From Moniliella sp. 'wahieum' (Eukaryota): a stretch of DNA of 64,000 nucleotides. The stretch is from positions 186,001 through 250,000 of the forward strand of contig RSEE01000001.1 in NCBI GenBank assembly GCA_003971905.1, given 5' to 3'. Of this stretch, positions 3,652 to 61,979 are shown piece by piece. The first letter of the stretch is position 1. Every line of letters begins with the position of its first letter. The notes under the pieces are model-generated. The model saw only the letters and a program-made list of their open reading frames with translations. It was not told the origin of the DNA and ran no database searches. The translations under genes were made by a program, and so were the position numbers.

Positions 3652-5062
3652 TCTCAACCGGTCCAGCTGCGATGGTGGTTAGAAGGGACTTGCGACGCGG
3701 CGGAATGGCATGTCGGGTGGTGCGCAGAAAGCCGAAAGCAGCGGAATTGGCATCGTGGATCACACAGCACGTCACGCGTCACGACGTCACATGCCGCGTG
3801 TCACATGTCACGAGGTTTGAATTGTTTCCCCTTGTGTTCACCACATTCACCCACCACACGACGTTCACCACCTGTTGCTGCAGATGGACAACCTGGTCCT
3901 GGTGTCTCGACACCCACGTGGCACAGGCAACACCACTTGTACTCGGCCGTCGGCAACGGCCAACCCAATCGTCAAGTACACCAGGACTCAACGGTAACCT
4001 CGTTGACCACCCCTTGTACCTCCCGCGGAGGTGCACATGGTTCTCACCCGCGACAACCGTGCTGTTTGCTGATCACTTCCATCGACCATACCACCACCAT
4101 ATCCTATCTCAACCACGCGGAAGCCTAGATGGCGCACGCTAGAATCCGTGCAGCCTGGATGTGAGCGTGGGTGCCAGCACGTTCTGGACGTACCAGGTGA
4201 TAGAACGAAGGGCCAAGGCCGTCGGGACCTGGCAAGTAGAGGCATACTTTTTAGTAGTACTCGGGCCCTCCTCCGCGCTCTCCCCTCTACATGCGGAAGG
4301 AAAACCCAAGGAATGAAGGTCGTATACTGTGAGGGGACTTGATACCGGGATGGAATGGAAGAATGGAGGATGTTGGCATGACAGCGGCGGTGGTGTGCTG
4401 AAGACAACTCACCGATCATGATCAACGTCCCCCTGGGATTTGCAGTAGTCGGGATGGCGGCGTTTTCGGCGTTGCGGGGTAGGAAATATATCTGTCTTGC
4501 GTCTCATCGTCTTGACGTACGTATACACTTGGGCAGACTGCCTACTAAGTACTAAGTACCAGCCGCCTAATCAAGCGTAAAGCTTAAGCACTAATTCGCT
4601 ACGGTTGCGTTATTTGCAGGGCTGAAAATGGATCCGAGCGGTGTACCTTTCGGCTAGATCAATTTGATGTCATGATGAGCATGTGCCTACCGCTGCTTCA
4701 TCCGGCAATACCCCCTGCCCCACCTGGGCCTAACGGTGCGTCACCAGCCCCTCTCCCCCCACGCCGCGTCATATTGACGACGCTGACGCATTGGCGCAGG
4801 AGCCCCACGCTTGATAGGCTCTTTGGCGGCGTGCTACTGAGAGACGCAACCAGGGCACAAGCCTTGCTGGGTTTGTGAGATAAAACACCGGCTGCAGCTG
4901 TCCCCAGACCGTAGGTACCGGGTTGGACAAAAGGACCCTTTGGACGGCAACAGACGCCCATATCTCTCCTCTCTCTCCTTCGCTCCCCTTGCCTGCTTTC
5001 GTCTCTTCGTGCCTCCACCCTCCACCCTCCGGCTCCTTCTCCCCTGTCCTCGATGCCACATA

Positions 5063-7132: not shown

Positions 7133-7211
7133 AATGAACTGCCAGCCTATCCACTTGCCCCAACCATTGCCCGGATAAGTAGCATGCACTGTCCAGATCT
7201 GTCCAGCCCGT

Positions 7212-8944: not shown

Positions 8945-9918
8945 GCCTCGTTGATTTTGGCGGGGTGGCTTGCTCATAAGCAGAGGTGTGCAGCAGGAGT
9001 ATCTGTCTGTCTGGTACGATCACTGTGCTTCTTCCTGGTCCAATTGTGGGCTTTGTTGTTGTGCAGATGCCAATGCCCATCCATCAATCATGTATTCATA
9101 TACACTTCTTCCACCGTGCGCCGAGCGCACTGATGTTGGCAACTGGCTATCATGATCTAGATCTAGACAAGTTGCATGGTTCGGCTCAGGCACACGTGGG
9201 ACAGACCGAAGGATAGGGAAGCGGCGATGGAGGTGAGGTTGCGCCTGGTGTGGCTGGGCCTCTGCTCAGGAACCGAGCGAGCTGAAGCGAGCGCCCAGGG
9301 ATACGTTGAAATTGAGCATTGAATATGGAGCAATGTGCACGCGACGCAGCCGACGCACCGACACCAACGCTGTCGCCCCGCATCGCTGTGCCTCGTGCGG
9401 CCTGCGGAGCGGAACAGGACGCGCCCTTAGCGGACACGCCGCCACTGCCATCCCCCTCCCACGCCCCGCACCGCAAGTGCCCACGTGGCGGCCCGGCAGG
9501 CTTCTACAATTTCAACTTTCAACCCTCGCGGCTGCATCCCCGGTGGCTCGCAGGCCGCACATCCACACTGGCGCTGTGCCCCCGCGCTCCACACCACCTG
9601 GGCGGGCAGGCCCGAGAGCATCGCACGGCGCCGTGTGCCATCCGCGTTTTTTTCTGCTGTGCCAGCTTGCGGCGTGGCGTGTGTCGCGTGACACGTGACA
9701 CGCGTGACACTCGACGCGTGATGCGGGAGGGCCACCGCCGATCGCAGCCCGTCAGGCTCCGGCGTGGAACCCGCCAGGCACCCACCACCCACCACCCATC
9801 CCCCATCCCCCATCCACCCATCCCATCATCCCCCATCCCTCATCCCATCATCCCCCATCCCTTCATCCCCCCACACCCCTCCCAACGTCGCCCCCTCCCA
9901 ACCTCCTCGAGAAGCAGG

Positions 9919-11850: not shown

Positions 11851-11970
11851 GCTTGGCACGTACCCCGTGCCTCCTCCTTCTCCTTTATCTCCCCTCATCC
11901 ACGCCCTGCTTCCAGCACTGTGTGTCAACCCACCTGGATGGACTGTATTCACGAGGATCAAATTTGATAG

Positions 11971-13121: not shown

Positions 13122-13791
13122 GGTTGTGGCGAGAGTGGGTGGGTGTGGGAGCGGGAGAGAGGGAATGGAATGGGAATGGGAATGGAAGGGAAGGGAAAGA
13201 AGGCTGCTGGTGATGGAGATGGCCAAGGCAGTGTGCTAGAAGACGCAGTTAAAACCGCGAGGCCAGCAGAGAAAGGCGGAGAAAAGCTGGGCGGCGCTGA
13301 GTGGTACTGAGTCTGAGTCTCAGCGCGGACGGGGTCCAAGATTAGGCCTTAGGATGCAAGTGGTGTCACGGCGTGTCACCGGTCACCCAGGCGCCGGCCC
13401 AGGGGCAGTGTGCGTCGCCCACGAAGTTTGCGGGACTGCAATTTCAAACGGTGGTTCCGCTCTGTTCCGCCAGAATGTGCGCCCACTTGGTTGCGATTCG
13501 GTGTTTGGCTGTGTGCTGCGCTGCGGTGCGAGCCGGCCCAAGCGGATGGGAGACCAGCGCCCACTGACAAAGATTTCATTGCTGATCTAATCAGTCCAGC
13601 CGGTATCCGCCAACTAGTACCCCTACCAACAGGACCACCCGACGGAGCCCCGCCACGGCACGGCGTGTGTGATGTTGATAGTCGCGCGACACGCAGCGCG
13701 GGGGCCCAAACCACCGCCCGGACCCGGACACGACAGTACCCGCACGACTGAGCCTCAGTCATCAGAGCATCTGCGCCTCCCTCGCCCCAGC

Positions 13792-14999: not shown

Positions 15000-15880
15000 G
15001 TGAGTTTGGCCAAGGCCCCTTCAGTCCCCATTGCACCCAATAGGCCACACATCCTCCAGTCTAGTTATAACACATGCTGGCAACAAGATACATGCCTCCC
15101 GTACAGTCGACTCGGAATTTGCCACGCCCCACCTCACATTCAAGGGAGGGGCTTACATAGTTTGACTCCGATATGGTAGAGAAAATGGTTGGAACTACTA
15201 TAAAACAGAGTATACGCTCCATCCCCGACACCCACGTCCGCAACGAACCACTGGCTGTGGAGGAAGAGGATGGGACGAGGCGCGGACGGAGGGCTAGGCG
15301 CACGGACTACCACGTGATGGGGCCCGGAGCACTCGGAGGATCAGGAATGGAGGTAGACCACACGCTGCGCGACACGGGATCGCAGGAGGCGCAGAGCGCG
15401 TACCGGAGGGTGGTACATGAAAGCACCGCCATGCCCCTGGAACGCCGGGAGAAGGAGCTGCTTCGGCTGCTTGAACAAGCAGAATGCGACAAGAACATCA
15501 AGTACCAGGGACGTACCCAAAAGCCGTTTTTCCCCCTGGTTTTGACGACGCGAGGAAACTACCGCACCAAGAAAGCGGGCAAGTTGTTTGCGCATTGGAA
15601 GGATCTGGCGACTAAGTCTCAGTGGAAATGGTTGCTCGCCCGGATGTCAACCACGTTCATCCGTGTCTACACGCGCTTCCTAAGTACGGGACCGGATGGT
15701 GACCACCGGAAGGTCCTGATATCCTGGCGATTCCCCTGGTTCCTTAACAGGGGTGGCGCTACCAAAAGTAACACACGCAAATGAACGGGTCGGTTTAGGC
15801 GTAGCGTTTCCTTGTCCCAGCCTGAAGCTCTGTTAATGATATATGGATGCATCATATCGGTATGGACTTCCATTCAACCG
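15000..15880 (+). mobile_element. Degenerate CRE/Cnl1-like non-LTR retrotransposon fragment (restriction-like endonuclease region)
   Basis: ORF 15173-15784 has the RLE pattern EP..RTD..G..EVDHT..DKNIKY..FFPLVLTTRG. It is homologous to 34570-35060 (-) and 45810-45960 (+). 15781-15860 matches 43926-44010. Confidence 0.75.
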
Positions 15881-16959: not shown

Positions 16960-18650
16960 AATACTAGTCACTAGTCCCTGTCACCAGTCAAATTTCAAAG
17001 GTCAAATGACCGGACGGCCGGTAAGATCTAAGATCTAAGATTTGAAGCGTCCTTTCATGACATGCATGATGCATGATGCATGAAGCATGGAGCTCATGAT
17101 GCATGATGCATGAAGCTTGAAGCTTGGAGCTTGAAGAAGCTTGAGCTTGACGGGTGAGCGGTGACCGCCGGCTTGTGGCCTATAAAATCGCAAATCAGAT
17201 ACCAGAAATTTTGGCCACCGCCTCCCCGCCTACAGTTGTCCCGAGTGGGTGGCGCATTGCGAGTGGCCAGGTGCGAGGGCTTGGCATGTTTCACCAACGC
17301 TGATGTGCTTCAGTGAGGGCATCGGCGCATCATGCATCATGCATCATGCATCAATGTCAATGGATCAGCGCCTCAGCCGGTAAGTGCTAAGATAAGTACT
17401 AAGCACGAAGCATTATTACTCACTACCTCAGGACTGAGCCTCAGTGTGCAGCACCACCCACATCCCTGTACGAGGTACTCATCGATCATCGTACTCGTCA
17501 GGCATCATACATCAGCGCATCCGGCCCAAGCTCAGGCCCAGGGGCGCTCACCGTCTCAGACCCCCTTTAGCGTAACGCGGGCCTTAGGCTGGCCTTTTCT
17601 GGGCCCCCAAGCCGGCATCAGGCATCAGGGCTGAGGCCTTAGGCCTTACGCGCTTACGCCGTAAGCACGCGGTACGCTCCGCGCTCCTTGTGCCTTTTGC
17701 ATCCAGAGTGGGTGATCGATATATCGATACTCGGCACAGCTTGCATATAATGGTACAGCCCCATTGCGGCCTATTATATTTTCCCGTGACGTGTGACATT
17801 GACAGGTGAGCGGCTGACCGGTGACCGGTGACATCAGATATACAACTTGTTGCCTTTTTGATGCATGGTGCTTGAAGCGCCTTGAAGCTTGAAGCTTGAA
17901 GCTTGAAGAGCTTGAAGAGCTTGAATCTTTTTGTCGATAAATGACTGTAGTGGCAGCCTAGTAGTTTGAAGTGAGTGCTGTCTGACGAGGAAGCGAGTGT
18001 GTGCGTAGACCACGCTGAGAGCTTGCGGCAGTGCACGAAAACTGAGTACATTATTAATTGAGTACTGATGGAGTCTCTTTCTCCACCCGTCAGATCGCGA
18101 ATCATTAATTAGTCAAGCTTCAACCTCTTCGAGAGGAAAGGGATAAATGACCAACCCTCTTGCCCCGAGGCATCGAGCATCCATCATGCATCATGCATCA
18201 TGCGAACATCTGCGGAGATACCCATTACCCGGGGTGTGTCACACGTGTCACATGCTACTGTACACAATGCACGAAAACCAACCCGACCTTTTCAGATGAA
18301 AACAGCCTTGTACAACGTTCAACGTTCAACCGTATTGCGTATGGAGTCCTGCGCCGAGCACTGCGAACAAGAGAGCCGTGAAGACCGTGTCAAAAAAGAG
18401 GGAAGGATTTTGGGCTCTGTTTTTTGCCTGCCATATCTGCTGAGAGTGCGGCAGCCGCCAACTCAAAATCAGAGGTGTGCGTATGGCGGCCTGGACCAGC
18501 AAATCCGCCCAAACCCAAAGTGTGCTTCAAGCGCTTGATTCTAACAACGATAGAAGTACCAGTTGCCCTTCAGGCACAGGCCTCAGTGCCTCATTTACAT
18601 GAGTTCCATCATCTTGAAGCTTGAAGCTTGAGTCTGATCGATGATCGAGA
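16960..18650. repeat. Cluster of 7-bp-periodic palindromic microsatellites (TGA-TGCA, TGA-AGCT, TAA-GATC, TCA-CTAG, TGA-CCGG, TCA-ACGT, TTA-GGCC units)
   Basis: Directly visible arrays at about 16963, 17022, 17058-17147, 17327, 17633, 17815, 17870-17925, 18180, 18313 and 18613. Confidence 0.9.
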
Positions 18651-18843
18651 AGGTTTTGTGGCGTTGCTGCTGATTCAACCAGCTGGAACAGGCTGGAACG
18701 CATGGCTCCTCTCAGATCTCAGGTCCCACATGCTCACTCGTGGCTGTGGTTGTTGTTGCCTGGGATCTGAGACCCCGGTAGACAGAGTGGGTGGTGGATG
18801 TATTTCGCAGTCAATCAATTATTCATTTCGAGTTTCATCGATC

Positions 18844-18852
18844 ATCAGATAA
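18844..18852 (+). promoter_or_regulatory. ATCAGATAA: iron-responsive GATA repressor (SreA/Urbs1/Fep1-type) consensus ATCWGATAA
   Basis: Exact match to ATCWGATAA about 850 bp upstream of a siderophore transporter gene. Confidence 0.6.
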
Positions 18853-19688
18853 AGAAAAATGCCTGTGCGATGAGGCCGATCAGGCCGTTCGGAGATGTGG
18901 CTGATGGCGCTGATGGAACCGGAAAGGGGCCAAAGGGTCACACTTCGATCATCGGTCAGTACTCAGTATCCCTCCAGTTTCATTGCTCAGCGCTCACTCT
19001 CTTCTCGAGGACCGAGCGTTGGGAGTATGCCGTAGAGCACCGGGCCACAGTCGAGTCCAGCACACACACTTGCCGCGCGAGCGCAATCGCAGGTGTTTGG
19101 GGGCCGCAAAACGTGCTCGAAAGCTCGACGGAAGTGACAAAGGCCGGAGGCTCGTCTCGCCCTACTAGTAGGGCTGCCGTAGCCGGTAGTAGGAAATACG
19201 CGGTACAAAGGCTTTTAACCGGTAGGTCCCCGCTGAGCCACTTGCTGCTACGTATCATGCATCTCAAGCAGTAGCCCCCTGTGTTTCGCTTCAGTGTGAT
19301 AGTCATATGCCGGGCAACAGCTCTTTCCCTCGGCACTTCGTCCCCGGGATGTCAGGTACGAGTATCCACCGCGGCACTGCGTGTGCTGGGTTTCACTGGT
19401 ACAGACTATACACGCGCCTTGCTTCTCCTTGGATGAGACGAAGGGGTCCATGATGCATGAGCGCTGAGCACATGCATGGGCAGAGCAAGACTTGAGATGC
19501 TGACGAAAACGAGGCGCTCTTCGCCCTCACCGATGCGAGAGACAGGAGGAAATGCAGCTCGTTGGAGGCATGGCGATTCAAATAAAGACTGCCCTTGCTT
19601 TTCAGCTGAGCGTTGCTGATCCAAATCGTCTCCCCCATTACAGCTGCGCTCTAGCACCACAGGCGCTGGCCTCATCTGTTCTATACCG

Positions 19689-22730: not shown

Positions 22731-22911
22731 TGTCACAGTCGGGGCTAAGGCGAGGGAGACCAGGATCGGACTAGGCCAAGGGGTGTAGCAATCGTTCGTG
22801 GGGAAGAAGCAAGAACAGAGGACATGGTGCGAAGTGGAAGGAACAGGGAAGGAGCGAGACGCTCGAGACGAAGAAATTGGAAATGGGAGCGAGATCAGCC
22901 AAACTATGACA
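22731..22911 (-). repeat. 3' LTR (181 bp)
   Basis: TGTCACAGTC...ACTATGACA. Differs from the other LTR only by three small indels. Confidence 0.97.
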
Positions 22912-22921
22912 TTGCCCCCTT

Positions 22922-28268: not shown

Positions 28269-28334
28269 GGGGGTTGTCGTGGATCGAGGACATCTCTGGT
28301 CGGGCTCGCCTGTTGACGGTTAGACGAACGATAA

Positions 28335-28516
28335 TGTCACAGTCGGGGCTAAGGCGAGGGAGACCAGGATCGGACTAGGCCAAGGGGTGTAGCAATCGTT
28401 CGTGGGAAGAAGCAAGAACAGAGGACATGGTGCGAAGTGGAAGGAACAGGGAAGGAGCGAGACGCTCGAGACGAAGAAGAAATTGGAAATGGAGCGAGAT
28501 CAGCCAAACTATGACA
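28335..28516 (-). repeat. 5' LTR (182 bp)
   Basis: Near-identical to 22731-22911 and adjacent to the gag start side. Confidence 0.97.
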
Positions 28517-29987
28517 GTATTCACTCTCTCTTCGCAGCGTAGAAATAAGCGTTGCTCATTTTTGCCAACTCTCAAGTATAAAGCTTGCGGCGAGGGCATC
28601 ACAGGAATTAAAATGCTAGGGACTGTGGCAGGAGGACGTAGTATACCCAGGCGGTGGCAGACGGTGTGGCTGTACCTGTACCACAGAGACAGGATATATA
28701 TACCCACATAACCCAAATGGTCCGTGCGTGTGCTGGGGTGACCGGTACAGTGACCCCTATAATACGACCTCGTAGAGATCTTTTGTCATCACCACAGGTA
28801 TACTAGTAGTACTGAAGAGGTGTGTGCAGTAGTCTCTCTCTATACGCTTGCCACATCCCTGCGATCTTTGGTACTCAACACAGCATTAATCGAATCAATC
28901 GCTTGCTCTGTTGGCTCTCTGACACAAAAATATAACCTTTTAACAACCCCTTGTGGCCCCCGTGACATATAATAAAACGGCGCCAATATCTATGACCACC
29001 CACAGGCGAACACACGGCCCCCCGCACTGTTATTATACGTATACTAGTACAAGAACCCGGGGCAAGTGGGGGACGGTTCTATATGTAGGGGTTAAACGTT
29101 AATATGTCACAAACCCCCACAATGCTCCGTCTCTGTAAAGCATGATATATCTGCCAGGACTTCCCGCGGCCGCAGCAATAGTCCGAGGAGTCATCATTGC
29201 ATCATTACTACTAGTACTAGTATGCAGTAGGAGTATATTGAGCGTACAACGCAGTGGTGAGAACTACACCCATATTGCAGAAACTTATTTTCCGCAGCGA
29301 CTAGTAGTGAGCTCGAGAGGGTGTGTGAAGTGAGTGGAGCACAGCTCATCGCTCCAATGCGCAAGCATTGCGCACAAGCATTGGGGAAGTAATAGCTTTA
29401 CGCTTTTCAAGTTTCCCCCATCAAAAATTCTTCAAATGAAGGCCTCTTAAATGATTCCAATATGTTCTTCTGTGGTTAGTAGTGCAGATCATGGTAATGA
29501 GATTGTGTGTGGGTCACCAGTGTGTGTACAGCCAGACGTTGCAAAGCACCTCGATCATCGACCTAACGCGCTCCCACATTCTCTCCCTATTACTCACTGC
29601 ATGTATGAATGACCGCTGCAGTATGCCGTTATGTTTGACACCGCACACAAAACATACACAACGCAAAAGAACATCCACACCCGGTGGCCCGTCTCCCGAC
29701 GCGCAGCAGGTATCCTCCCGTGGTATCATGCATCATAGCACTCTCCACACTCTTGTGGTAGTAAGAGAAAGCATAATACGATTGACCCTCTCATATATAC
29801 AGCTACGACCATGTTCTCACACAGTTGTGCCCATTGCGGTCCTCGTCTTATTCCTTTAAAACGCAGTTCTTATCCCCGCACAACTCTCCTGCTGACTTCC
29901 TCCCCCCTGTGCGCCACCATCACCAACCCAGCTGCCCCATCACCAGGTCCTTGCCCAGTCCTCTCCACTTCAGCCTTAGGACCCACG

Positions 29988-34569: not shown

Positions 34570-35440
34570 GTAGTAATTATTGAGACTTATATAGTATCTA
34601 GTAGTATTATTGAGACTTACATTCGTTCTTTCCAGCGTCCAAACCATTTTGCTCGCCATCTTGGTGGCATAATAGTATCATCGTGTCGTCATAACCACAC
34701 GAGAGAAGAAGGGTGCTTAGGTGCGTCCAGTTGGCACGCATTCTTGTTGCATTCTGCTTGTTCCAACAGTTGAGGCAACTCTCCTTCTCTGGCGTTTGAA
34801 AGGTGCTGCGGGGCCCTCATATGCCTCACACCTCTGATACAGAAAAATCACTTCCCGTCTTCCCCACTCCGCAACGTGTATATACTATAGTTCACTACCT
34901 CCATTCCTGATCCTCCGAATGCTCCAGGTCCCATCACTCTTTCGTAATCACCAGGCATCGCCTTCCTCCCACGCCTCAACCCTAACCCTTTTCCCTCCAC
35001 AGTTGGCTCGTAGGGATGTGAGTGTCGGGATGGAGCGCACACACTGGAGGAAGGGCATGTCCGTTCCGATTTGGGCAATGCACCACACTTGGACTGGGAG
35101 CTGGTGCAAGCATGATGTGCTCATCAGCTGAGGACATATGACAGCCACTTGCACATCAGTTACACAGGTTGCACGGAACGGCACAAGTTGTGGAGCTGAG
35201 GCCAATCTGAACCTACCTGCCGCTGTCATGCGCTCGACCATCCGCACGTTACATCCTCCACTCCAACATTATACGCGATGCTACTCCCACAGCTGAGTAG
35301 GGAGAGGCCAGCTGTTGGCAGCTGAACTACCGAACGAGGTCTTTAGCACGCAGACGGTAGATCAGTCCCCACAGGCGATGGGGCGGTTTCCTCTCGTTGG
35401 CTTTTCTAACAACGGAGAAGGACCTATAACCACCTGGGTG
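34570..35440 (-). mobile_element. Internally deleted CRE/Cnl1-like non-LTR element
   Basis: Minus strand reads PLLEKPTRGNRPIACG.LIYRL (early RT motif), then RMVERMTAA, then directly the RLE region (VMGPGAFGGSGMEV..LLEQAECNK), which aligns with 15215-15620. Confidence 0.72.
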
Positions 35441-35747
35441 CCCCGTGCCCCTGTGGGCTTACGCGCTTACGAGAGAAGCGATAGCGTGAAGCCTGCGTGA
35501 TGCATGATGAATGGTGGACGATGGATGATGCCTGTTGCGCGCACCATGAATACCTTACTAGTCACTAGTCACTTGTCACTGTGACCAAGTTACTCAGGCC
35601 CTCAGGCCCTCAGGGAGGGCGCCCATTGCTTAAATGTTCAAGCTCACACTCATGTGGAACCCTCGACAACTGCAAATCCCAATCGTGGCTACGCCTCCTG
35701 GAGCGTCACCACCACCAACGTCACTAACGGTCTCCTTGATGGAGACA

Positions 35748-37049: not shown

Positions 37050-37158
37050 CCGCCTATCTCCCATGGGGGCCAGTAACTGATGCACTACCCACACTTGTTC
37101 GCATCCGTAGGCCAAATTACCTCTCCCGTCTTGGCGAGTTGGACATAGGCTACACAAC

Positions 37159-37987: not shown

Positions 37988-38863
37988 GGCGGTGGGGGGT
38001 AAAAGAGATGCGAATACCAAAAAATGCTGGCCATATTCAATTTCAATTTTGTCGGTTGGCGATGACTTCGATGACTTGGCCAGCTCCAGCGAAGGGCTTC
38101 TGATGGGGCAGCTATTGATTAGATGCATCGGGTTTGCTTCAAGAGCCCTTTCAACTGCCTTTACTTGAGCCGTATAAGCGCGACTTGTGCGCGACTTGTG
38201 CATGAGGCACCAAGCCGCGCATGGCTGCTGCAAGAGCATCACGTGCATCACGCGCACTACGCCTGATGCATGACATGCATGACAGCCGATGAGACGGAAG
38301 CTCACTCCAATTTCCAATTCTGCCGCGCGCGTCTGCCACTTCCCGCTTACCTCGTCTCGCTCTGCCCTCGTTCCTCCCGCCGCCGCCCCCAAGAAGAATG
38401 CACGCCAACTCAGAGTACCTGCAGCCTCCTTGCTATCTGGTCTCCTCTCCCGCTCAGTTTTGTCTGGCGCAGTGCAGTGCCAAAGAAGTTAACATCTCAC
38501 CGCGGTGCCCCCGCCATCGCCCCTCCCTCCTTTTCGCACAACCACAGCCCACGAACGTTGAGCACACAATGCACCAATGCGGGCCGCGCGAGGACTCCGC
38601 CTCGGCTGTCAGGCGGCCAAAGGGAGTAGAAATGTACATTGAGTAGAACCTGATCAGGAATACCTCATGGGTAAGCTGGAAGTAGCTAAAGCCATGCCTA
38701 GCATTGGTAACCTCCCCCCCCTCTCACGCACACGGGAGGGAGAAGCAAGACGTCGTCTCAGGGCGATGAGAAAATGGGATGGCACGGGCTTGTAAGGGCT
38801 TGTACGGGCTGATACGGGCTTCAGCGCGCGGCGCTAAGCGATTAAAGCTTAGGACCGGCATAA

Positions 38864-39918: not shown

Positions 39919-41881
39919 CTACAAGCAATCCAGATGATCGATGAGTACTGAGTGGGCATAATCGATAATCAGAGTAACATAGCTGACTTGAAGGCAGAGA
40001 GTGATCATAATCGATGTATGTGCCGCGGCATGCTTCTCAGATGTCATACATATAAGCGGGCAGATATAGTACTCCCGGCCTGGATGGTTTTGACGAGCGT
40101 TTTGGACCCGATTCAGGCGTCCCAAAAGGCGTCCCAGTCGGCCTCAGTAGGCGCAGCGATAAGCGCATCGAGTCGCCCCAGCAGTCCCTGGATCATCTCC
40201 ATCTGCTCCCCCAAAAGCGCAGCTGAAAAGTCCACCAACCTCTGGCCATCAGGAGGCAGTGAGGTCATTTGTTGCACGCGCGCGAGCGCAGCGGCGTATC
40301 GCGGAGCCGGGCAAGCGCGCCGAAGGGCGTGGCAAGGAGCTTGGCCGCGTTGAGCGAGTTGCCTGCCGACCGCACTAGCCCCGACACGGCCTTCTGCCAC
40401 CGATCCAGGTTTTGCTGTGTTGCTTCGTGGTCGGATTTGTAACAGGAAAGACACCACATGGTCATGGTGGTACGCCAACTAGGGTGGGTAGGTACCGGCT
40501 GCTCTTGGATAGTCCAATCACCTGCGTACCCTGCTTCGTCCAGTACGGTGCGGGGGTGAAGCGGGTGGCCCGGTTCCAACTTCAACATCAAGGCCAGCCC
40601 CTCCAGCACAGCGTTCACTGCCTCGTCTAGATTCACGTCGTTGTATCGGTTCCATCCGGTTTTGTCATCGCGTGTCAGGACAAAGCCATACTCAGCAAAG
40701 AGGAACTGAAGTCAGAAGCAGGCTTGGGTCAGGACCGATAGTTACTAACACGGCAGGAAAAACACAGTCAACGTACCGGGTTCGAATGCGGGCCGTACTG
40801 GAGGCAGATGGCATCGCCTTTGCGCAGCCCGCGCCAATGATCTCCATCCTTCTGCGCGTCGGTATTGGGTGGAGCGCACAGGTCCAACCCCCCACGCGCG
40901 GTGTGGTGCACGCGAAACGCGGTCGCAAGGTCATTCGTATGATTTGCCATATCAATAATGGGCATCAAGGTAAAGTTGTCAGCTCGTGGAGCAAGTTGCA
41001 GCTCGTAGAAGATGCACCGGCTGGGTCGGTGAGGAAGCAAAGGTCAGATCTGCAATACCCACAAGCAGCACAGGGGAAACACTGTTTACGCATAGCCAGC
41101 CCCAGACAAATACCTCCTTCGAAAGAAGAGGGAGAGGCGTACGCCAGCGCTCGGGAGTTGGCACATCGGGGAAGAGACGATCGCGAAGCGCGTTGGTGGT
41201 GGGAACATGCTCGTAGGCAGTACAAGTTGCGGCCCAGTCGCGACGGAAACGATGGTAGACCGCTTCTACCAGGGTGCGCACCCGAGGGGTGAAGGAGGCC
41301 CAGAGAGTCGAATAAAATTCATACGAGTCCGACGGTGGGCGAGCAATGCGGTGGGCATACAGGTAGATCCAGAGTGGGTGGGTGGAGAAGAGGGAATCGG
41401 GCATGCTATCAATCATCGGGGTGAAAGTAGCGAGAGGGGGAGGTAGCCTGTCGCGAGGGAACTGACGACAAACTGCAAGATAGAGCGCAACAAGTGCAGT
41501 GTGGCTCAGAGGACCAGGCGTTGCGTGGGAGTCGACGGTACCAGGGCGGGCATGAGAGGCAGTACCCCAGTCGGGATTGCGCTCATGGTCATCCACAGCG
41601 GTTGGGGGTTCTGGGAGTGGGGCCCAAAGAGGGGAGGGGCGTGGGATGAGAGATGGAGGAAAGACGGAGCGAATAGTCTTGATATTGAGCAGGGCACTGG
41701 ACGGCACACTGAGTACGGTCTGGCCAGGGACGACGGCGTCGGCGAGAACGAGGGTGCGGCCCTGGTCTGGGGTGTGGTGAATGTGCACAAGCGGGGGGCG
41801 GGGCTCCTGGGGCGCACCAGAAGAGCTGGGCGCAGTCTGAGCCGAGTGTGCTGCGACAAAGTCCAGCAGCAATTGCTCCAT
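39919..41881 (-). CDS. SET-domain lysine methyltransferase (Rkm2/SETD4-like, Rubisco-LSMT type)
   Basis: GRTLV..GQTVLSVPSSALLN, FVWGWLCVNS.RC, TLMPIIDMANH, KGDAICLQYGPHSN. Confidence 0.85.
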
Positions 41882-43925: not shown

Positions 43926-46060
43926 ATGAACGGGTCGGTTTAGGTTCAGCGTTTCTTTGTCCCAGCCACAAGCTCTGCCCAAGGATATGCATACCGAATA
44001 GACCTTCAACACGCGGATCCCCCCGACCCAGTCTCCAAGACCAACCAACTTAACTGGGGAGGGCTGCCTCAGCCGCGCAGCAAGTACCCTCACCGGCTTA
44101 TCCACCATTGCCCTCTCACTCCAGAGACCCAGACAAGCCTCGAAAAGCTCCATCCTGTTGGAGATGCGAACCCCTTCAACCTCGGTTCGGGCACAGCCTT
44201 TGGCAACACAACCCGCCGCACTCATCCTTCCCATCATACAGGCCGAGTGGTATCGCCGAGCACCTCACCCCCGCCGACGCGACGGACAGTAACCGTGTCT
44301 GTCAGACTCACGCCGTGCTAGGGGGCCCTTGGCCCACTAGGCCCGTATGGGCACTATGGCGTGATTCTTATCAGTTGGGAGATCCTGTGTCCACCTCTCG
44401 ACTGTGCCCCCTTCCTGAGGAGGTACATATACCTCCTGTGCGTCCATAGATGTATGCAATCTATCTGCACCCTTTCCCCCATCTCCGTTCCTGACAGGTT
44501 AGATCCCACTCAGCCTTCCAGGCTCGCGAGCCCCGCGGACATCTCTCCTCCACGGCCTCGGCCGCCCTCCTCCCCGCCCCCGATGTCCGCCCGTCCGCAC
44601 GGCACACTGCCGCCGTGCGCTGACTTCTACCAGGACGCCTTGCAGGTCGGCGTCAGGCCCCTCACCCCCCTCCCGTGGCCGCTGTCCCCCACGCGGACCC
44701 CCTCCCCGCCACGGCGCGTGAGACGGCCCCTTCCGTTCCGGAATCCCCTACCCCTGGCCTGGCCGTGACCGACGCTCGCGCCCTCATCACCGCCACTATT
44801 CAGGCCCTCCTCCCCTACCTCTACTTCCCCGCCCACCCCACCCCTGCTGCCCGCCGCTCCGCCATCCCTCTCCTGACAGTGTCGAGGGGATTTGGACGAA
44901 ATCGACTTTGTGCCACTTTGATTGCCACATTTCCATCGATGTTGGGGCAAGTCTATCCGGGTGGACCCAACCCCTCCTACGTGCGGCCCTCGAATGCGAC
45001 CGCTCCGTTGACTTTCTCACCGCCCTCACCAAGGGTATTTACCACGGAACTGCTCCGGACCGTGTGCTCCTGCTTGCCTCCCGCCTTACCCCCCTTGGAG
45101 AAGGCAACGACGGGAGGTATCCGCCCCATGGCCTTTGGGGAGCTGATCTACGGCCTGTGTGCCAAAGGCATCACTGGAGCGACCGCTCCCGATAGCTGGC
45201 TTCTCCCCATCACTCAGCTGCGAGTAGCATCGCAAAACAGAGTGGAGCCTATCGGGCGGATGGTCGAGCGCATGGCAGCGACATGCGGGGAGAATGACGA
45301 GAGGGAGGGGGAGCTGGACGATGTATTGGCCGAAATTGATGCCTTCATCTGCACGGAGTTCAGACGGATCCAGAGCGACGAGGACCCCCAAGGTATGAAG
45401 GATGGCCACTTCGACATCTTCATGAGCTTTTGCCTCTCCGGATGGGAGGATGCGGCAGGCAGCCCGCTCTACTTGTATATCGCGCCCCATGCACGTGCTG
45501 CGGCCAACGAGGTCAACGACTATCTTATATTACCACTTATGATGACCGTCGGATGCACGCACGGCGACGGCGAACGCATTTACGAAGGAACGCCAGCGCT
45601 GCCGGGAGATGAGAGAGAAGAGCCGACAAGGACAGCTCCAGAAGCTGGACGATGCCGGCGGTCGCAATGTGGTCGAGCACAGCAACCCGCTCAGCCACAC
45701 TTGGCTCTCCTCCCCATTCCATCAGCCCGTGCCTCCGGCTCAGCGACAAGCATGTTGAGGTTTGGTCTCCAGACCGCACGCTGTGCTGCTCCATACGCAG
45801 CATATGTCCATCCCCGACGCCCACATCCACAACGAGCCGACTGTGGAGGAGGAGGATGGGACGAGGCGTGGGAGGAAGGTAATGCGCACTGATTACAGCG
45901 TGATGGGGCCTGGAGCAATCGGAGGATCAGGAATGGAGGAGGACCACGCTGCTCAACTCGGGAACGCAGGAGGCGCTGGCTGCGTACCGGAAGGTGCCCA
46001 ACCCTACTCTCCAGCGTGGAACGGGGGCTACGAGGGCGAACAGGATGGAACGGTGGCTAA
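43926..46060 (+). mobile_element. Degenerate, rearranged CRE/Cnl1-like non-LTR retrotransposon
   Basis: EGCLSRAA..EKLHPVG; SGWTQPLL..LLASRL.PLEKATTGGIRPMAFGELIY; thumb motif LPLRMGGCG; LRLSD; RLE start (NEP..RTDYSVMGPGAIGGSGME). No YxDD seen. Confidence 0.8.
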
Positions 46061-46150
46061 GGTGGCGAGCAGGCTGGGAGTGAAGCTTGAAGCCCCATCA
46101 GGTGACCGGCCCGCAGGCCCGGTGGTCTCCTAGTTGGAAAAAAGATGGAA

Positions 46151-46206
46151 CGGCAAGCGGGGAGCGGCAAGCGGGGAGCGGCAAGCGGGGAGCGGCAAGC
46201 GGGGAG
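46151..46206. repeat. 14-bp tandem repeat (CGGCAAGCGGGGAG) x4
   Basis: Four consecutive copies, with a 7+7 substructure. Confidence 0.9.
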
Positions 46207-46399: not shown

Positions 46400-46715
46400 G
46401 TGATGCATGATGCATGATATATGATGCACGTTGCATGACATGTGCATGCCACATGTCACATGTCACGTGTCACATGCATCACATGTCATGCATGTCACTA
46501 GTCACTAGTCACTCTAGTCACTAGTCACTGTGACATGTAGAACTGCAGGTGGCTGGTGGCGGCCACTGGGGCCGGGACACTGGTGGGGTGCGGCCCCGTG
46601 GTAGGAAGGAAGCTTCGGGCCCAGCAGCAGCCTGTGGTCACCTAATTCAGCGACGGGCTGGAGCAGGCCATAGCCCGTCAAGCTAGTCACTAGTCACTAG
46701 TCCTAGTCACTTGCC
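46400..46715. repeat. Dense 7-bp palindromic microsatellite array (TGA-TGCA / TCA-CATG / TCA-CTAG)
   Basis: TNA triplets spaced mostly 7 nt apart (occasionally 9) from 46401 to 46531, and a second run at 46683-46712. Confidence 0.9.
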
Positions 46716-47823
46716 ACTCGCCCAGCGCAGGATAGCGCACTGCTGGCTCAAATCTTTCCTCAGCGTGCGGGTTGCAATGCAACGCAGGCAACGTTGTAAA
46801 ACGCTGACGGCGAACGCTTTGATCGGGATCACGCGTCACGCTTTTATTACATGGTAACCGGTAAATCCGGTAAATGCTAATGCACTAATGCTCCCTGTTG
46901 CATGTTACCGGTTGAAGCTTCGCGCTTACCACTCTCAGCGCTCGCAGCCCCGGCCCAGGCCTCAAGCTTCAAGGCATCAGGATCCAGTGGGCTGGTCCTA
47001 TACAGCCGGTTGCATGGTACACATGCTGTGGGCTGCTACAGCGTGCTACAGCTGCTCTAGCTGGGCTGGCTGGGCTGGCTATTGAGACGCTGGCTGATGT
47101 CACTCCACTCTCCACGGGTTGGGCCGGGTGATGATCGATGATCGATGTCGATGACTGCCAGTGCCCCCGTATGCTCGGTGGTGAAACACATGCATACGTA
47201 CCGGGTACCTCGTTGGCCACGGCAGCACCGTGGATCGGAGGCAGCCGAGGAGGTGGCACTTGGTGGCACCTGGGGCCTGGAGGCCGAGATGGCACAGGCC
47301 CGTGCTGCTACGCACTAACAAAGCGCTATCGTGTATCGGGGGACATGCGATGGATGATGCACGCATACGTGAGCGCTGAGCGGCTGAGCGCCCAGGCTAA
47401 GCGCAGGATGCGTCCGATCGGACTGCAGGGGCAGCCACGGCAGACGCACTGGCGCACGCTCTGTGCACGCAGCAGCATGCTTTGAACATTGCAGCTCGCA
47501 CCCCTCGGCCTCAGCATCTCGGATCTCAGATCTCACGCGTCACGCATCCACTCTCGGGCCTGCGTACTGCGTCTCAGACAGCATCCAACGCCCCGTGCAG
47601 GCAGCCCGCAGCCCGTACGCGGCCGGCCAAGCCCCGTCCGTATTCCATCCGCTCTGCGCCGCCCCTTCCGCTCCCACGTCCCAGCCCCTCCTGCCCGCCA
47701 CCGCCACCGCCACCCTCACCACCACCACTACCCCCCTCATCACCACCACCCGCCCAATTAGCCCCCCCTGCACACGCCCCCCCCCCCTCGCGGCGAGTGC
47801 CACACCAATATTCCTTCCTCATC

Positions 47824-51983: not shown

Positions 51984-53131
51984 CGGGGGAACATGGCGGG
52001 TCCCTGGGCTAAGAGGGTTAGCGATGACGCATTTGGTTGGTTGGGGGGCTGGTCCCGTGGTTCTGGTCCCTGGGTATAAGGCCCCGTCCCCGCCCCCGTT
52101 CCGGTTCCAGTTTCGGTTTGGGTCGACTGTTCTGATTTTGTTTCCTTTTGGTCCCCCCTTTTGGTGCCTCCCCCCTCCTCCCCCGGTTGTATGTCCGTTC
52201 CGGCGTTCACCCACCTGTACTGTTGTGGCAGCTGCCACCTGGGGTGGGATTGGACCGACCACACACTTTACACGGTGCCTCGGTTCTGGATTCTGGATTC
52301 TGAGTTTTCGTTTTTGGGTTCTTGGTCCTCGGTTCTGGGTTTACGCGTTACGCGCGGGACGTGTGTATGTGGTTGTTGCTTTTCATCTTTGGCTTTGACT
52401 ATGGCTTTGGCTCTGGTTTTTTTGTGGTTTGGTTTGCTTTCATGGTTTTCTTTTTCTTTCGCACTCGCACTCGTACTGTTCCTCGTATCTTCCTCCACTT
52501 CACTTTGTTCGTCTCGGTCTTTATTCTTCCGGAAAGGATTCTTCTCTGCACCCCCCCCTCCCCCGGCTCTGTCCCCCCTCTCCATTTGCCCCCCCCCCTC
52601 TACCCCGGTCTGACTGGCATAGCTACAGACCCTAGTTGATGCGCTGTAATTGCTATGTTTTCGCACTGGACAACCTAGCCGGTACGACGGCCAGGATGAT
52701 TCATGTGCAGGCAGGGAACGACGCGAGCCAAGCACCGAGGCAGCGCTCTCTTCCCCTGCTCGGTCCGTACCGAATTAAGGACTAGGATAGTGCTGATGGT
52801 GGGTAGCTGGCACGGAGATATAAGCTGGGTTAGGCACACAACAGAAAGATGAATGCCAGATGAGGACGAAATGGGCAAGGGAGGGGTGGCTTTGATTAAT
52901 TTTGTTTGGGACAAGAAAGATATTGAGGCAGATACAAGCCAGGCGGGAAGGACACAGACAAGGACAGACACGAAAGGGAGACAGGAGATCCCCGCCCAAG
53001 TAGGACTGGCAAGGCGCTGCCACAATGAACGTGTTGTGTTCTATACCGAGTCGCGGGCAGTTTGGGTCCGGCTTGAAGCTTGAAGCTGGAACGCTGAACG
53101 TTGGGCGTGAGGCTGGCGAGGACCTCGCATG

Positions 53132-56735: not shown

Positions 56736-57062
56736 CGCTGCAGGGGGTGGTCGCTTGGAGCACCGGCGCCGGCGGGCAGCGCGCCCGAAGCAGCCGGCTT
56801 CTGCGTGGGGGCAGTCGGCGGGCGCCTGCAAGGGCCCGCCCGCACGGCGCCCCTCTGTGACGTCGCCCGCACGCGCTCCCTACGAGCACTGGCCCCCTGC
56901 CTGTCTGCACTGCGCTTGCGCTGCCGCTGGCTGTCTTCTGCTGCGGCCGCAGCCGCTGCATCCTCCCAGTATCCATCCACTCATTAACACACGCCCGCCT
57001 CTGGCCGCCGCCCCCTCACGCTCACGCCTCACGTCTCCCACAGCCTGCCAGTCCACACAGCG

Positions 57063-59047: not shown

Positions 59048-61979
59048 GCGGCGAGATGGAGAGGGAAGAGCGAGCGAGGCGGGCAGAGGGGGGGTTGGGT
59101 CTGCGTGGCCCAGGCTGGCCGGCTGCCCCGTGCCCGAGAGGGGGCAGCTGGGCAGTGTGCCGCCTGGCGGCCTCCGATCCAGTGACATCATCAGCATCAT
59201 CTTTGCCGTAGTGCTAGTGACCTAGTGATCGATGATCGGTGACTGTCTCTTGTGACATGTGACAAGCTCCAACGCATGTGCACCGGCGAGCCGGCGACCT
59301 AACATGCTGACATCTGAGTCTGAGGCGAGAGCAATGGCCCAAGCAACCTGCCCCGTAACACGTAACCCTCCAACACAAGTGAATCCAGGCGCTGCTCTGG
59401 TTGTTGTACCGCACCCCACTGCCCACGCCGTCGCCAAGTGAGCGCTGAAAGCAGGGTATAGGTCATGGGGGTCGCGAGATGGGCCCCACTGTCAGCGCCA
59501 TCATGCATGCAGCTGATCACGCATCACGCATCGCGCTGTTCTATCCGACTCTCCCCTATGTTCTGCCCCTCATGGGCTCCTCTCTTGGAATAGATCCATC
59601 ACCTCCTCTCTCTCTCTTCTTCTCTCCGTAGGCCTTTGTCCTCGTTATTAACACCCACCCCTGGAGTTTAGGGTTATGGTTTGGACGGCCAATCGGAGCC
59701 ACGTACGGTATTTTTGGCCTCGGATCCTGGTCCAACCGAGCTGGTGGAGAGGCGAGGGAGAGACCCTCTAGTTAGAGTGGCTGCCTGCGTGCAAAGGCCC
59801 TGTTGAAGGGGTCCAGGAACTCTGGGGTAACCTGGATTACCTGGGGTGTTGTCACATTCGACGCGCTGTAATAGGCGGAATCAGACGGAGTCCTAATGAA
59901 GAGCAAGAGCGAGTAACTTCCGCTTGCAGTGGAACCGAGACGCGAGTCGTAAATTCGTAAGGGTGGTAGAAGGTGGAAGGGCAAGAGAGGGATGGAAAGG
60001 TTGTAAAAGGGGCATGTGTAACAGGGTGAACAGGGTGGTCAATAAGGACCACAGCGAGCAAGCCTTAGGGCTGCTTATATACAGAAGGAACCAGCCCTCA
60101 AGTGCCTCATGACAGGTATAAACAGATCCGGGGAACTTTCCAGAGAGGTGAAGACTACTTAATACGCAGCCCATGTTCTCACAGGCGCTGACACTGGGCG
60201 ATCGGGCGCAGCAGGTAAATGGTTCTGCCAAGACTACTATAGGCGTGACAGGCACAACGCATCGTACCGATGAGTCCATGCGACCATGGCGGGCCACGGG
60301 ATGATATCCGCAGCATCAGTAGATAAGGTTTCCGCTGGTTCTTCTCTCTCGCTAATAGTCTAACGGGACTGACGCGTGTTTCTGGATGAGAGATGTCTAC
60401 GACATGCGGGGTTCAGCGTCAGGAAATAACCGGAGCGCCCCGTCCTACTCGCCATAGTGCCGTCGAGGCCGACCAAGACGAGCACAAGAGAGCCCCACAT
60501 GGGCTTTGATCGGTATATCATGTTGAGCCATCGGGTGGCTCGTGCTTTGGCCAATGTCCCTTCAGTTCCTCCTCAGGCCTGGGAGTTCCGTTGTTTTCTC
60601 TCTCTTGTTTTTCCCTGTTCCGCAGCTTAGCCCCTGGTGGCGACTCGCTGCTTGGTGTTCCTCTGTAGACGTTGCTGGTTGGCTTAGACCATTACCACCA
60701 CCACTAGTGCGATTGCATCACCCTCGAGGACCATCTGGACTCCAGGTCTCGTCAAGCTTGAAGCTTTGGAAGGGAAATGGTATTGTCCAGGGGCACCGCC
60801 CTGCCCCGTTCGGCGCTTGTCTCCCAGTTGCCTCCCTTGTACTGGCATATACCACTGCCCCATCGCCACCTACTCAGTACCTGTCTTGTGTGACTCTCAC
60901 CCGACGGCGCGCCATCGGCCCCTGCTGGCACCATACATACATCATGCATCGTCACCTGCCCATCCCATGTGGCTCCACACGCGACCTCCATCCACCGTCC
61001 ACTGAGCATCGCATCAGTCCTCAATTCTCAAAGGCCTTACGGCCTCGTCCCGGCCTCCCGGCCCCAATGCCAACTATGCTTCAATCCTCCATCTTCGCTT
61101 TTCGCACATCGTACCCTATGCCACTGCCTATCTCGGTTCGTATATGCAATGGTACAGGGAAAATCTCCTACCCCCGACCGCGCACCGGCACCGGTCACCT
61201 GGCACCTGGCACCCCTGTCAGCCCTTTGCAGGCCAAAGTCAGCTGGATGCAGAATGTGAATTGCAACAGAGCAGGAGGGAGTGAACATCCGGCTGGACCG
61301 TCCTACGCCACGATGAGTACCGGACCGTGCGGAGTGGGAGCGAGAGTGAGGGCGTGCTGTACTCTTCCGCGCCCGGTCCCCGGTTGGCACGGGCAAGGCG
61401 CAAACCAGCAGCAACAGGAGAACAGTGAGGAGAGAGAGAAAAAAAAAGGATGGGGGTCAAGGGAAATGGGAAATGGGCACTGGGCAATTGGCAATGAGCA
61501 ATGGGCAACAGTGGTCAAAGGCGAACAGAACATAATAGAACACGAGGAGCAGCACGACGGCGAGACAGACAGAGGAAGAGGGGAGCAGGAGGGTGGGACA
61601 AAGGAGCGGGAGGGGAAGGAGGTCGACAAGGGGGTGGTCCATGAAACCAGACGTACCAACGTTCCCACGCATGCAGACAGAGGGTCGAGAATTGCAGCAA
61701 ACAGTAGTAAGGCCGAGAATGGGATGGGGGGGAGAGTAGGGACAGGAAGATGCGGGAAATGGGCACAGCAGGTAGACAGGCAGGAAGGCAGGCATACAGA
61801 CTGGGCACCGCACCGCCGCACCGAAAGCAAAGCCACGGGGTGGTGGTGGTGAGAGCAGGGTGAGCGGTTGGGTGGTGGGGTGGCGATACAAGGCTCCGAG
61901 GACTCCCCAAGGCGACCACCGATCACCGACCAACCCAATGCAATCCAATCCAATTCAACTCAATTCCATTCCATTCCAT

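Follow-up and report, generated by a model that had tools for sequence, protein, structure and literature searches.

Heptamer arrays built on a TNA triplet and palindromic spacers in the non-coding DNA of Moniliella sp. 'wahieum', and their possible origin as excision scars

Many intergenic microsatellites in a stretch of Moniliella sp. 'wahieum' DNA (contig RSEE01000001.1, positions 186,001 to 250,000; the whole 64,000-nt stretch analysed is called the window below, and positions are counted from its first letter) look unrelated in sequence and yet follow a single rule, in which a T-N-A triplet recurs every 7 nt and the 4 nt between successive triplets form a palindrome. What kind of process repeats a fixed triplet at a fixed period and makes the spacer symmetric while leaving its sequence free? 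The original prediction, made from the sequence alone, had called these arrays a non-coding code and had offered two sources for them: an enzyme making 7-nt staggered cuts at symmetric nnTNAnn sites followed by fill-in, or selection for a DNA-binding protein that reads shape or symmetry. The arrays proved to be real, and the rule stronger than first stated. We read them as scars, for which the label of a code is not justified. What makes them interesting is that their signature of mutation is clean and lineage-specific and points to one particular enzyme activity.

The TNA rule and its distribution

One link was defined strictly as a 10-mer consisting of T-N-A, a 4-bp palindrome and the same T-N-A. 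The window contains 71 such links, whereas 200 dinucleotide-preserving shuffles of it gave 2.08 ± 1.49 (maximum 7), and five non-coding stretches with a total of 9363 nt contain 56 links, compared with 0.47 ± 0.65 after shuffling. The excess of palindromic cores thus survives correction for composition in both the window and its non-coding DNA. The links form 54 chains, here also called loci, including 41 with two TNAs, nine with three and four with four. Among the 28 positions cited in the original prediction, 26 are in the strict list; as for the other two, there is a perfect period-7 run of 14 nt at 16963, but its second TNA is broken, and 60754 is a near case in which N differs.

Tandem Repeats Finder detected many period-7 arrays at the cited places, and the expected excess of period 7 over its neighbours was recovered in the perfect tandem runs, which numbered 19, 17, 28, 2 and 2 at periods 5, 6, 7, 8 and 9, respectively. 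A rotation that fits the rule (T-N-A plus a 4-bp palindrome) was present in 27 of the 44 perfect period-7 runs of at least 14 nt, a class that by arithmetic makes up about 2.7% of heptamers (448/16384). Moreover, links in runs shorter than two units were about 35 times as frequent as expected by chance.

Neither another triplet class nor another spacer length came near the excess of TNA with a 4-nt spacer. Specifically, links built on ANT, GNC and CNG instead of TNA were observed 1, 5 and 3 times (expected: 1.6, 7.8 and 7.4), and palindromic spacers of 3, 5 and 6 nt between TNAs were weakly enriched (12 vs 8, 7 vs 2 and 2 vs 0.6, respectively). The only other clear excess was that of a rarer class with a 6-nt spacer, described below. 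In a search blind to the triplet, in which a 5-mer direct repeat is separated by a 2-nt spacer equal to the reverse complement of the adjacent 2 nt, the TNA class gave 82 hits and the next classes gave 9, 8, 5 and 5. Additionally, 6-bp palindromes of the form ANNNNT were over-represented (263 vs 160 ± 13), whereas CNNNNG, GNNNNC and TNNNNA showed no excess. The cores themselves are diverse: 14 of the 16 possible palindromes are present, their first bases are used near-evenly, and 14 of 59 chain-core counts are of the G..C type. The middle base of the triplet is C or G in 44 of the 54 loci.

All 54 loci are located outside Pfam-supported coding segments and outside a long terminal repeat (LTR) retrotransposon. 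The coding map was built from Pfam matches on open reading frames (ORFs); a map based on the GC content of third codon positions (GC3) failed to discriminate coding DNA. In three coding stretches and the retrotransposon, none of 45 TNA-centred palindromic heptamers had an identical tandem pair and a TNA was repeated 7 nt away for one of them, whereas in the five non-coding stretches 32 of 107 such heptamers had an identical tandem pair and 60 of 107 had a TNA at ±7. The scarcity of arrays in coding regions, which had been noticed without counts, is thereby confirmed.

The majority of the loci lie in 5' intergenic regions, and two (52341 and 53074) lie between the 3' ends of the convergent histidine-kinase and EFR3 genes. 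TGA and TCA forms are intermixed inside a single intergenic or promoter region, and the orientation of the arrays follows no visible pattern when the ordered list is read, a reading rather than a formal test. The spacing between neighbouring loci is uniform modulo 7 and nearby chains are out of register, indicating that each chain is a locus of its own instead of a remnant of a single large array in decay. When the perfect links were masked in a 3.85-kb region (15% of its length), lag-7 identity decreased from 0.321 to 0.276. In addition, self-BLAST showed that the array clusters are not mutual copies, the only repeated sequences being the LTR pair and some retroelement fragments; no informative 7-bp indels were found in the paralogues that it returned.

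Flank-templated palindromes and a second product class

The second TNA of a link is a direct copy of the first. Among 77 cases of TNA-palindrome-TMA, M was identical to N in 71 and complementary to N in two. Such copying of the same N fits a duplication, and would be required neither by a hairpin nor by a symmetry-reading protein.

The palindrome, in turn, is related to the sequence next to it. In 25 of the 54 loci the dinucleotide just upstream of the chain is identical to the second half of the first core, in 33 the dinucleotide just downstream is identical to the first half of the last core, and in 43 at least one of the two matches holds, compared with 5 of 54 in a wrong-half control, which is about chance. 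Both flanks are symmetric in 15 of the 54 loci. Among the 41 single-link loci, both flanks fit in nine, one flank in 23 and neither in nine, and the perfect period-7 run spans only 10 to 13 nt in 28. Falling short of 14 nt, these 28 runs cannot have arisen by simple tandem duplication of a palindromic heptamer. Heavy decay of once-symmetric duplications was considered as a source of the one-sided flanks and rejected, as lag-7 identity outside the perfect links is small.

Chains with more than one core are informative in the same respect. A core switch with both cores palindromic occurs in five of the 13 multi-link chains, and both outer flanks fit in four of these five. The chain at 39935 is exactly what would result from two events flanking one non-palindromic ancestral heptamer, GATGAGT, with TCGA derived from its GA and GTAC from its GT, and the same two-sided derivation applies at 17097 (CATGAAG), 19451 (CATGAGC) and 47526 (TCTCACG). 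One-sided flanks, runs shorter than two periods and different palindromes around one TNA together indicate that symmetry was written, not read, by the event. Each spacer has its own palindrome, copied in inverted form from the dinucleotide beside it, and the site need not be palindromic beforehand. A 5-bp duplication with palindromic (P) nucleotides at either end was also tried as a source of these structures and rejected, since the mirror products that it predicts (spacer xyN'A or TN'y'x') were found in only 3 of 48 cases.

The rarer class has a 6-nt spacer, composed of a 4-bp palindrome and 2 nt, between two identical TNAs, and was observed 11 times in the 9.36 kb of non-coding DNA, compared with 0.74 ± 0.82 expected. 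Window-wide there are 19 such cases, eight of which consist exactly of a heptamer, 2 nt and the same heptamer, the 2 nt being the reverse complement of the first two bases of the heptamer (for example, GATGACT-TC-GATGACT at 38061, CATCACG-TG-CATCACG at 38237, GGTAAAT-CC-GGTAAAT at 46860 and GCTGATG-GC-GCTGATG at 18900). In the triplet-blind search, this right-copy period-9 type gave 12 hits against about 0.24 expected by arithmetic, and TNA was at the exact centre in eight of the 12. One-sided period-7 loci are downstream in 16 cases and upstream in seven, whereas the flank-fitting period-9 cases are opposite in direction (seven of the right-copy type, one ambiguous and none purely of the left-copy type), and no consistent strand or orientation bias emerges from the two classes together.

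Candidate origins of the arrays

We tentatively favour, at a level that falls somewhat short of probable, the reading that the arrays are mutational scars of a 7-bp staggered cut repaired with hairpin-derived filler, and that the agent is a hAT-like cut-and-paste element. What was observed is the rule with its statistics, a palindrome templated by the flank, and two classes of product; from this anatomy we infer the enzyme and the structure of the event. The event would act on a heptamer, w1w2-TNA-w6w7, of the non-coding DNA. Cut in a 7-bp stagger with TNA at its centre, this heptamer would remain on both sides of the break as a 7-bp target-site duplication, and the ends would be capped as hairpins and opened 2 nt off the tip, giving a loop-less, P-nucleotide-like inverted copy of the last two bases. 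End joining would then retain one extension, with the other end either clipped by two bases or kept whole. In the former case, the product would be w1w2-TNA-w6w7 + revcomp(w6w7) + TNA-w6w7, or its mirror image, with a net gain of 7 bp and a 4-bp palindrome between the TNAs; in the latter case, it would be the full heptamer twice with 2 inverted bases between, a net gain of 9 bp. Arrays might grow to 2 to 7 units by repeat events beside the same TNA, by re-use of the new palindromic heptamer and by replication slippage. The likeliest agent would be a low-copy, non-replicative hAT-like element of the hAT7 or Kyakuja type that leaves one scar per jump, and a transposase-derived host nuclease could leave the same scars. 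Many scars and few elements can be reconciled in this way, because a non-replicative element would scar each donor site while remaining at low copy number.

Hairpins on flanking DNA are formed by hAT, Transib, MULE and RAG, are opened by host nucleases such as Artemis and lead to footprints after end joining, as described in the available excerpt of PMC5499845. Hairpin-type footprints (hAT, Transib and Mutator) and the P nucleotides of V(D)J joining resemble the structures in the window in combining a direct target duplication with a short loop-less inverted copy at the junction; set against P nucleotides, the inverted copy here is 2 nt and matches the flank in 43 of the 54 loci. The direct duplication is of fixed length, judging from the same N in 71 of 77 cases, the exact heptamer, 2 nt and heptamer in 8 of 19, and the TNA-centred hits in 8 of 12, and the inverted flank copy is loop-less (43 loci vs 5 in the control, with four of the five hetero-core chains fitting on both sides). 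A matching element or transposase was not found within the 64-kb window; because this defining element is missing, the scars are not filed as proven hairpin-type footprints. Additionally, such footprints have been described singly at known donor sites, whereas here they would form a family of arrays far more uniform than typical end joining, and no description of footprints as a genome-wide family of arrays was found in the literature.

Classical hAT target duplications are 8 bp. Basidiomycete DNA transposons with 7-bp target-site duplications, the same length as that proposed here, include the hAT7 families of Pucciniales and Kyakuja of Laccaria bicolor (PMC12730594, available excerpt). In contrast to the present case, these elements are reported from Pucciniomycotina and Agaricomycotina, not from Ustilaginomycotina. 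The termini of Kyakuja are CA..TG and lack inverted repeats.

Comparison with other DNA shows that the rule is not universal to heptamer repeats, which counts in favour of the scar reading. A metagenome scan for (TGAAGCT)3 returned at least 121 contigs or loci. Among the matches listed, the other perfect period-7 runs were off-rule in 107 cases and on-rule in three, and extra TNA-palindrome-TNA chains numbered 46 in 732 kb against 181 for the ANT, GNC and CNG controls together, which is no excess. In viral contigs, (TGAAGCT)3 was found at 27 loci, compared with 6 and 7 for two scrambled controls, and (TGATGCA)3 at two loci, compared with 9 and 1. A universal hairpin-driven preference for palindromic TNA heptamers is unsupported by these metagenome and viral counts.

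Many of the (TGAAGCT)3 metagenome contigs are prokaryotic and, among the matches listed, have the array set within facing arrays of other heptamers. Intergenic heptamer repeats are known from bacteria such as Xanthomonas and Nostoc (Rehm et al. 2015, PMC4692102, available excerpt). They share with the window arrays a period of 7, an intergenic position and often the ability to form hairpins, and (TGAAGCT)n is itself found in numerous contigs of bacteria and phages. They differ in that their units are mostly not self-complementary and lie in two facing arrays, their hosts are prokaryotes, and, among the matches listed, their neighbouring arrays are off rule (107 vs 3). Facing inverted arrays of the bacterial type were rejected for the window, where the loci consist of self-complementary units and are independent of their neighbours, with which they are out of phase. 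In the prokaryote-like contig L010 (9973-10107), (TCAAGCT)n lies inside facing arrays of a related non-palindromic heptamer (AGCTGCA ... CTTGCAG), and in contig L073 (1-520) such arrays flank a gene for a 23S-rRNA intervening-sequence protein.

One metagenome contig, L062, carries six extra chains in 20 kb, with the units TGAGATC, TAACCGG and TGAAGCT. It consists (1-20021) of four tandem units of about 5.5 kb, 80-89% identical, each with an intron-bearing Upf1/SDE3-type helicase gene, and the helicase is 85% identical to a Lactarius protein. On the basis of this single Lactarius-like contig, the rule may reach beyond Ustilaginomycotina at lower density. The paralogous units differ inside arrays by exactly 7 bp (one repeat unit) and 14 bp (two repeat units), and their overall indel spectrum (1 bp, 17; 5 bp, 6; 6 bp, 11; 7 bp, 3) has an excess of 6-bp indels. 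Some of the inter-unit indels create short palindromes beside the flank, such as ACTCC before GAGT and CCCGGG before CCCC.

Several observations weigh against hairpin-type scars of a hAT-like element. Within the window, a scan with 10-nt seeds for inverted repeats 40-8000 bp apart brought up, beyond chance, no element flanked by a 7-bp or TNA duplication, no ORF of at least 125 aa matches a transposase family, and apart from one LTR retrotransposon there are only some retroelement fragments. The density of the scars (54 loci in 64 kb and 56 links in 9.4 kb of non-coding DNA) implies very many jump cycles, and the outcome is more uniform than usual end joining, with 71 spacers of 4 nt vs seven odd 5-nt palindromes. 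Moreover, the predicted double-P product (pal4+pal4) was seen 0 times, plain heptamer duplications without inverted filler are few, and the nine single-link loci (of 41) that fit neither flank need later mutation or another route. The indels between the L062 paralogues form no 7-bp peak (3 of 7 bp vs 11 of 6 bp), and a TNA-centred target preference would have to be assumed for hAT7 and Kyakuja. It is because of the missing element, the density, the uniformity, the absent double-P product, the non-fitting loci and the assumed target preference that we hold this reading tentatively.

A further possibility, on the unlikely side, is that the scars derive from an undescribed hairpin-forming and TNA-targeting nuclease, which would be either a transposase, new or domesticated, or an element of high mobility and low copy number. 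In this rather unlikely case, the nuclease would act preferentially in basidiomycete promoters and keep making 7- and 9-bp insertions that seed microsatellites, and the arrays would keep a record of its activity across the genome while supplying regulatory variation.

If the arrays are scars, about 15 to 23% of two large intergenic regions (the masked fractions) would be the product of one break-and-repair process. Each scar would record its target heptamer and the processing of its ends, so that hairpin opening and end joining could be followed in a fungus from natural sequences, which is rarely possible. Scars would also provide a concrete origin for microsatellites, in transposon footprints instead of chance proto-repeats, and a signature to search for in other genomes (TNA-xy.y'x'-TNA-xy, or a heptamer, 2 inverted bases and the heptamer again), and a hidden regulatory code would be unnecessary. 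A literature search did not find the rule described, which is weak evidence, since most subscription journals were outside its coverage.

Ordinary slippage microsatellites resemble the arrays in their 2 to 7 units, their irregular end phases and the 7- and 14-bp unit differences seen in L062. From slippage one would expect neither that the TNA is fixed and the core always palindromic, nor that cores are templated by the flank, chains switch their core and runs fall short of two units. A slippage-only microsatellite, in which the unit is unconstrained, was rejected, as 27 of the 44 runs fall in a class of about 2.7% and the 71 links far exceed the shuffled expectation. Slippage is proposed for the extension of the arrays and not for their birth.

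Among the rival explanations, a polymerase template-switch during replication or repair is unlikely. No dedicated enzyme would be involved; the polymerase would realign at the T of TNA, a triplet that is the same on both strands except for N, and after TNA-xy a brief switch to the complementary strand would add y'x', with slippage extending the arrays afterwards. Such a switch accounts for the flank-templated 2-nt inverted copy together with the direct copy of N, requires no transposon, in keeping with none found in the window, and might be helped by modest hairpins with TNA triloops, which are possible at -2 to -6 kcal/mol for single arrays. However, A-N-T, G-N-C and C-N-G hinges should work equally well and show no excess, as seen above (1, 5 and 3 vs 1.6, 7.8 and 7.4), and viral or metagenome DNA shows no general excess of such units. 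The full 7-bp direct duplication in the period-9 products is explained more simply by a fixed staggered cut, and intramolecular fold-back is not expected to give loop-less palindromic junctions.

Selection in promoters, the second source named in the original prediction, is improbable. Here the arrays would be cis-elements kept for a protein or for DNA shape (hairpin or cruciform formation, or nucleosome exclusion), and it is true that most loci are in 5' intergenic regions and that the arrays are partly self-complementary. The 14 cores, however, share no conserved recognition sequence or half-sites, only T and A being fixed, for which reason an array of protein binding sites was rejected. The same N is kept in both triplets instead of varying freely, TGA and TCA forms occur side by side in a single promoter region with no visible orientation pattern, copy number and phase are irregular, and loci are also found between the 3' ends of convergent genes (52341 and 53074). 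Folding is modest, with z-scores of -0.7 to -4.2, mostly -0.7 to -1.9 for single arrays. The proposal of a symmetry-reading protein was thus not upheld.

The first source, a dimeric enzyme that cuts any symmetric xy-TNA-y'x' site with a 7-nt stagger followed by fill-in, is very improbable as originally written, with the palindrome as a precondition. In its favour, the period is 7, perfect runs most often begin at x (7 of 26) and most often stop at x' (7 of 26), and 15 of the 54 loci are symmetric on both flanks. Nevertheless, the one-sided single-link loci (23 of 41) largely refute it, a further nine of the 41 fit neither flank, 28 of the 41 runs are below 14 nt, and the middle heptamer of the hetero-core chains is non-palindromic. 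In addition, single symmetric heptamers in non-coding DNA are not depleted (21 vs 14.2 and 10 vs 6.5 expected), and symmetry with free sequence would presumably be unreadable by a protein. What stands of this proposal is the 7-nt staggered cut itself, which comes near to what the anatomy supports (71 of 77 with the same N, and full 7-bp duplications of TNA-centred heptamers); the need for a symmetric nnTNAnn site, present on both flanks in 9 of 41 single-link loci, does not.

Footprints of PIF/Harbinger-type (PHIS) elements such as NuwaII are highly improbable as a source. A 3-bp TNA duplication with 2 nt from each inverted terminus, TNA + xy.y'x' + TNA, would explain the same N, the symmetry and the sum of 3 and 4 to 7, and the target duplication of NuwaII, C|TNA|G with any N, is reported from two basidiomycetes in the available excerpt of PMC4482050. 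However, 14 cores would require about 14 families with different termini, the bases beside TNA have no C...G bias (G..C cores, 14 of 59), and PIF/Harbinger excision is usually precise, with 109 of 110 events in yeast according to the available excerpt of PMC2836001. Terminal remnants would be unrelated to the flank; the core-flank match in 43 of 54 loci is not predicted, and the 7-bp duplications would be left unexplained, so that this candidate was rejected. An assembly or sequencing artefact is scarcely credible, since the loci are confined to non-coding DNA, 54 independent loci have lawful flank relations, and the same chain type occurs in the independent contig L062 from another basidiomycete.

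Coordinates and surroundings of the arrays

The loci are listed in Table 1, together with near cases and neighbouring genes. The gene content of the window is fungal or eukaryotic, with Pfam matches of ORFs to EFR3, Tpt1, a Ras-family GTPase, tricalbin C2 domains, histidine kinase, MFS transporters and a Ty3-like reverse transcriptase with RNase H; a tRNA scan and an Rfam scan of the window gave zero matches. The best relatives of the Tpt1 domain belong to Ustilaginomycotina (Tilletiaria, 41%; Malassezia, 44-47%; Exobasidium, 42% identity), with one further relative at 64% identity. The guess of a smut-related lineage was therefore right at the level of the subphylum. The heptamer arrays attributed to Ustilago maydis were not confirmed, as the literature search found no paper on them.

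Table 1. TNA-palindrome chains, period-9 products and near cases in the window (hyphens separate TNAs, cores and flanks; subscript-like numbers after parentheses are copies)
Position	Strand	Feature	Context
3770..3811	.	CG-TCA-CG x2, then TCA-CATG-TCA	upstream end of DENR gene ORF (minus)
4543..4587	.	(TAAGTAC) 2.4 copies and TAA-AGCT-TAA	
9685..9710	.	period-9 CGTGACA + CG + CGTGACA (7-bp direct duplication, 2 inverted bases)	
13342..13385	.	TTA-GGCC-TTA, TCA-CCGG-TCA	between aspartate-semialdehyde dehydrogenase (minus) and PTPLA (plus) genes
16963..17160	.	dense cluster: TCACTAG, TCAAATT, (TAAGATC)2.9, (TGATGCA)n in phase into (TGAAGCT)n; hetero-core chain at 17097-17120, ancestral heptamer CATGAAG	
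17327..17403	.	(TCATGCA) 3.9 copies, then degenerate TNA chain and TAA-GTAC-TAA	
17479..17660	.	TCA-TCGA-TCA; (GGCATCA)2.3, a plain 7-bp duplication; (TTAGGCC)2.1	
17800..17925	.	(TGACCGG)2.6; (CTTGAAG)4.0, then period-9 units CTTGAAG+AG	
18059..18330	.	TGA-GTAC-TGA, TCA-AGCT-TCA, (TCATGCA)3.1, (TCAACGT)2.6	
18613..18996	.	(TGAAGCT)2.7, (TGATCGA)2; single links with cores GATC, TCGA, GTAC, GCGC; period-9 GCTGATG+GC+GCTGATG at 18900	
19451..19467	.	hetero-core chain CA-TGA-TGCA-TGA-GCGC-TGA-GC, ancestral heptamer CATGAGC	
29093..29735	.	isolated links TAA-ACGT-TAA, TCA-TGCA-TCA	upstream of tricalbin-like gene
35498..35580	.	TGA-TGCA-TGA and (TCACTAG)2.4	
38060..38284	.	period-9 GATGACT+TC, CATCACG+TG, CATGACA+TG and one period-7 link	5' part of Tpt1 ORF region, upstream of Pfam-matched domain
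39935..39968	.	hetero-core chain GA-TGA-TCGA-TGA-GTAC-TGA-GT (ancestral GATGAGT) and TAA-TCGA-TAA	
46081..46336	.	TGA-AGCT-TGA, TGA-AATT-TGA, TGA-CGCG-TGA inside TGA chain, alternating cores	
46401..46529	.	longest composite: (TGATGCA)n with one TATA core, then TCA chains with cores CATG, CGTG, CTAG and period-9 AGTCACT+CT	
46683..46971	.	(TCACTAG)2.9; TCA-CGCG-TCA; GG-TAA-CCGG-TAA, then period-9 GGTAAAT+CC+GGTAAAT; TCA-AGCT-TCA	
47130..47542	.	(TGATCGA)2.6; (TGAGCGC)n; hetero-core chain TC-TCA-GATC-TCA-CGCG-TCA-CG	
52341..53091	.	(TTACGCG)2 and (TGAAGCT)2.4	between histidine-kinase (plus) and EFR3 (minus) genes
59226..59448	.	TGA-TCGA-TGA, (TGTGACA)2, TGA-GCGC-TGA	just upstream of MFS transporter ORF (minus)
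60752..60772	.	near case TCA-AGCT-TGA-AGCT, complementary N, 10-bp perfect palindrome	

A 16-bp inverted repeat spanning 487 bp (18984-19470) joins two GCGC-core chains in opposite orientation (TGC-TCA-GCGC-TCA ... TGA-GCGC-TGA-GCA); the stretch was considered as a miniature inverted-repeat transposable element (MITE) and rejected on reading, as nothing else in it is MITE-like. Additionally, (TGATGCA)n at 17062-17113 and (TCATGCA)n at 17327-17353 are reverse complements about 215 bp apart and could pair as a long stem, which may be chance given the number of arrays.

The LTR retrotransposon is located at 22731-28516 on the minus strand; it matches RVT_1 and RNase H and, weakly, gag and integrase. 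The LTRs, 181 bp long and 97% identical, begin with TG and end with CA, a 5-bp sequence (GTATT) is duplicated at the target, and no TNA-palindrome chain was found in the element. A repeat family with three copies or fragments (15150-15832, 43926-45996 and 34895-35037), 76-88% identical, may be a degenerate retroelement; its long ORFs are without Pfam matches. Its copies lie 0.1-1.1 kb from array clusters, a proximity for which gene-poor DNA alone may account.

Some tandem repeats of the window do not follow the rule. These include (GGAGCGGCAAGCGG) with 4.3 copies at 46147-46206, (GGGCAAT) with about seven copies at 61461-61508, C-rich arrays with periods of 7, 15 and 37 bp at 9779-9900, and 18-bp repeats within the retrotransposon at 26351-26467.

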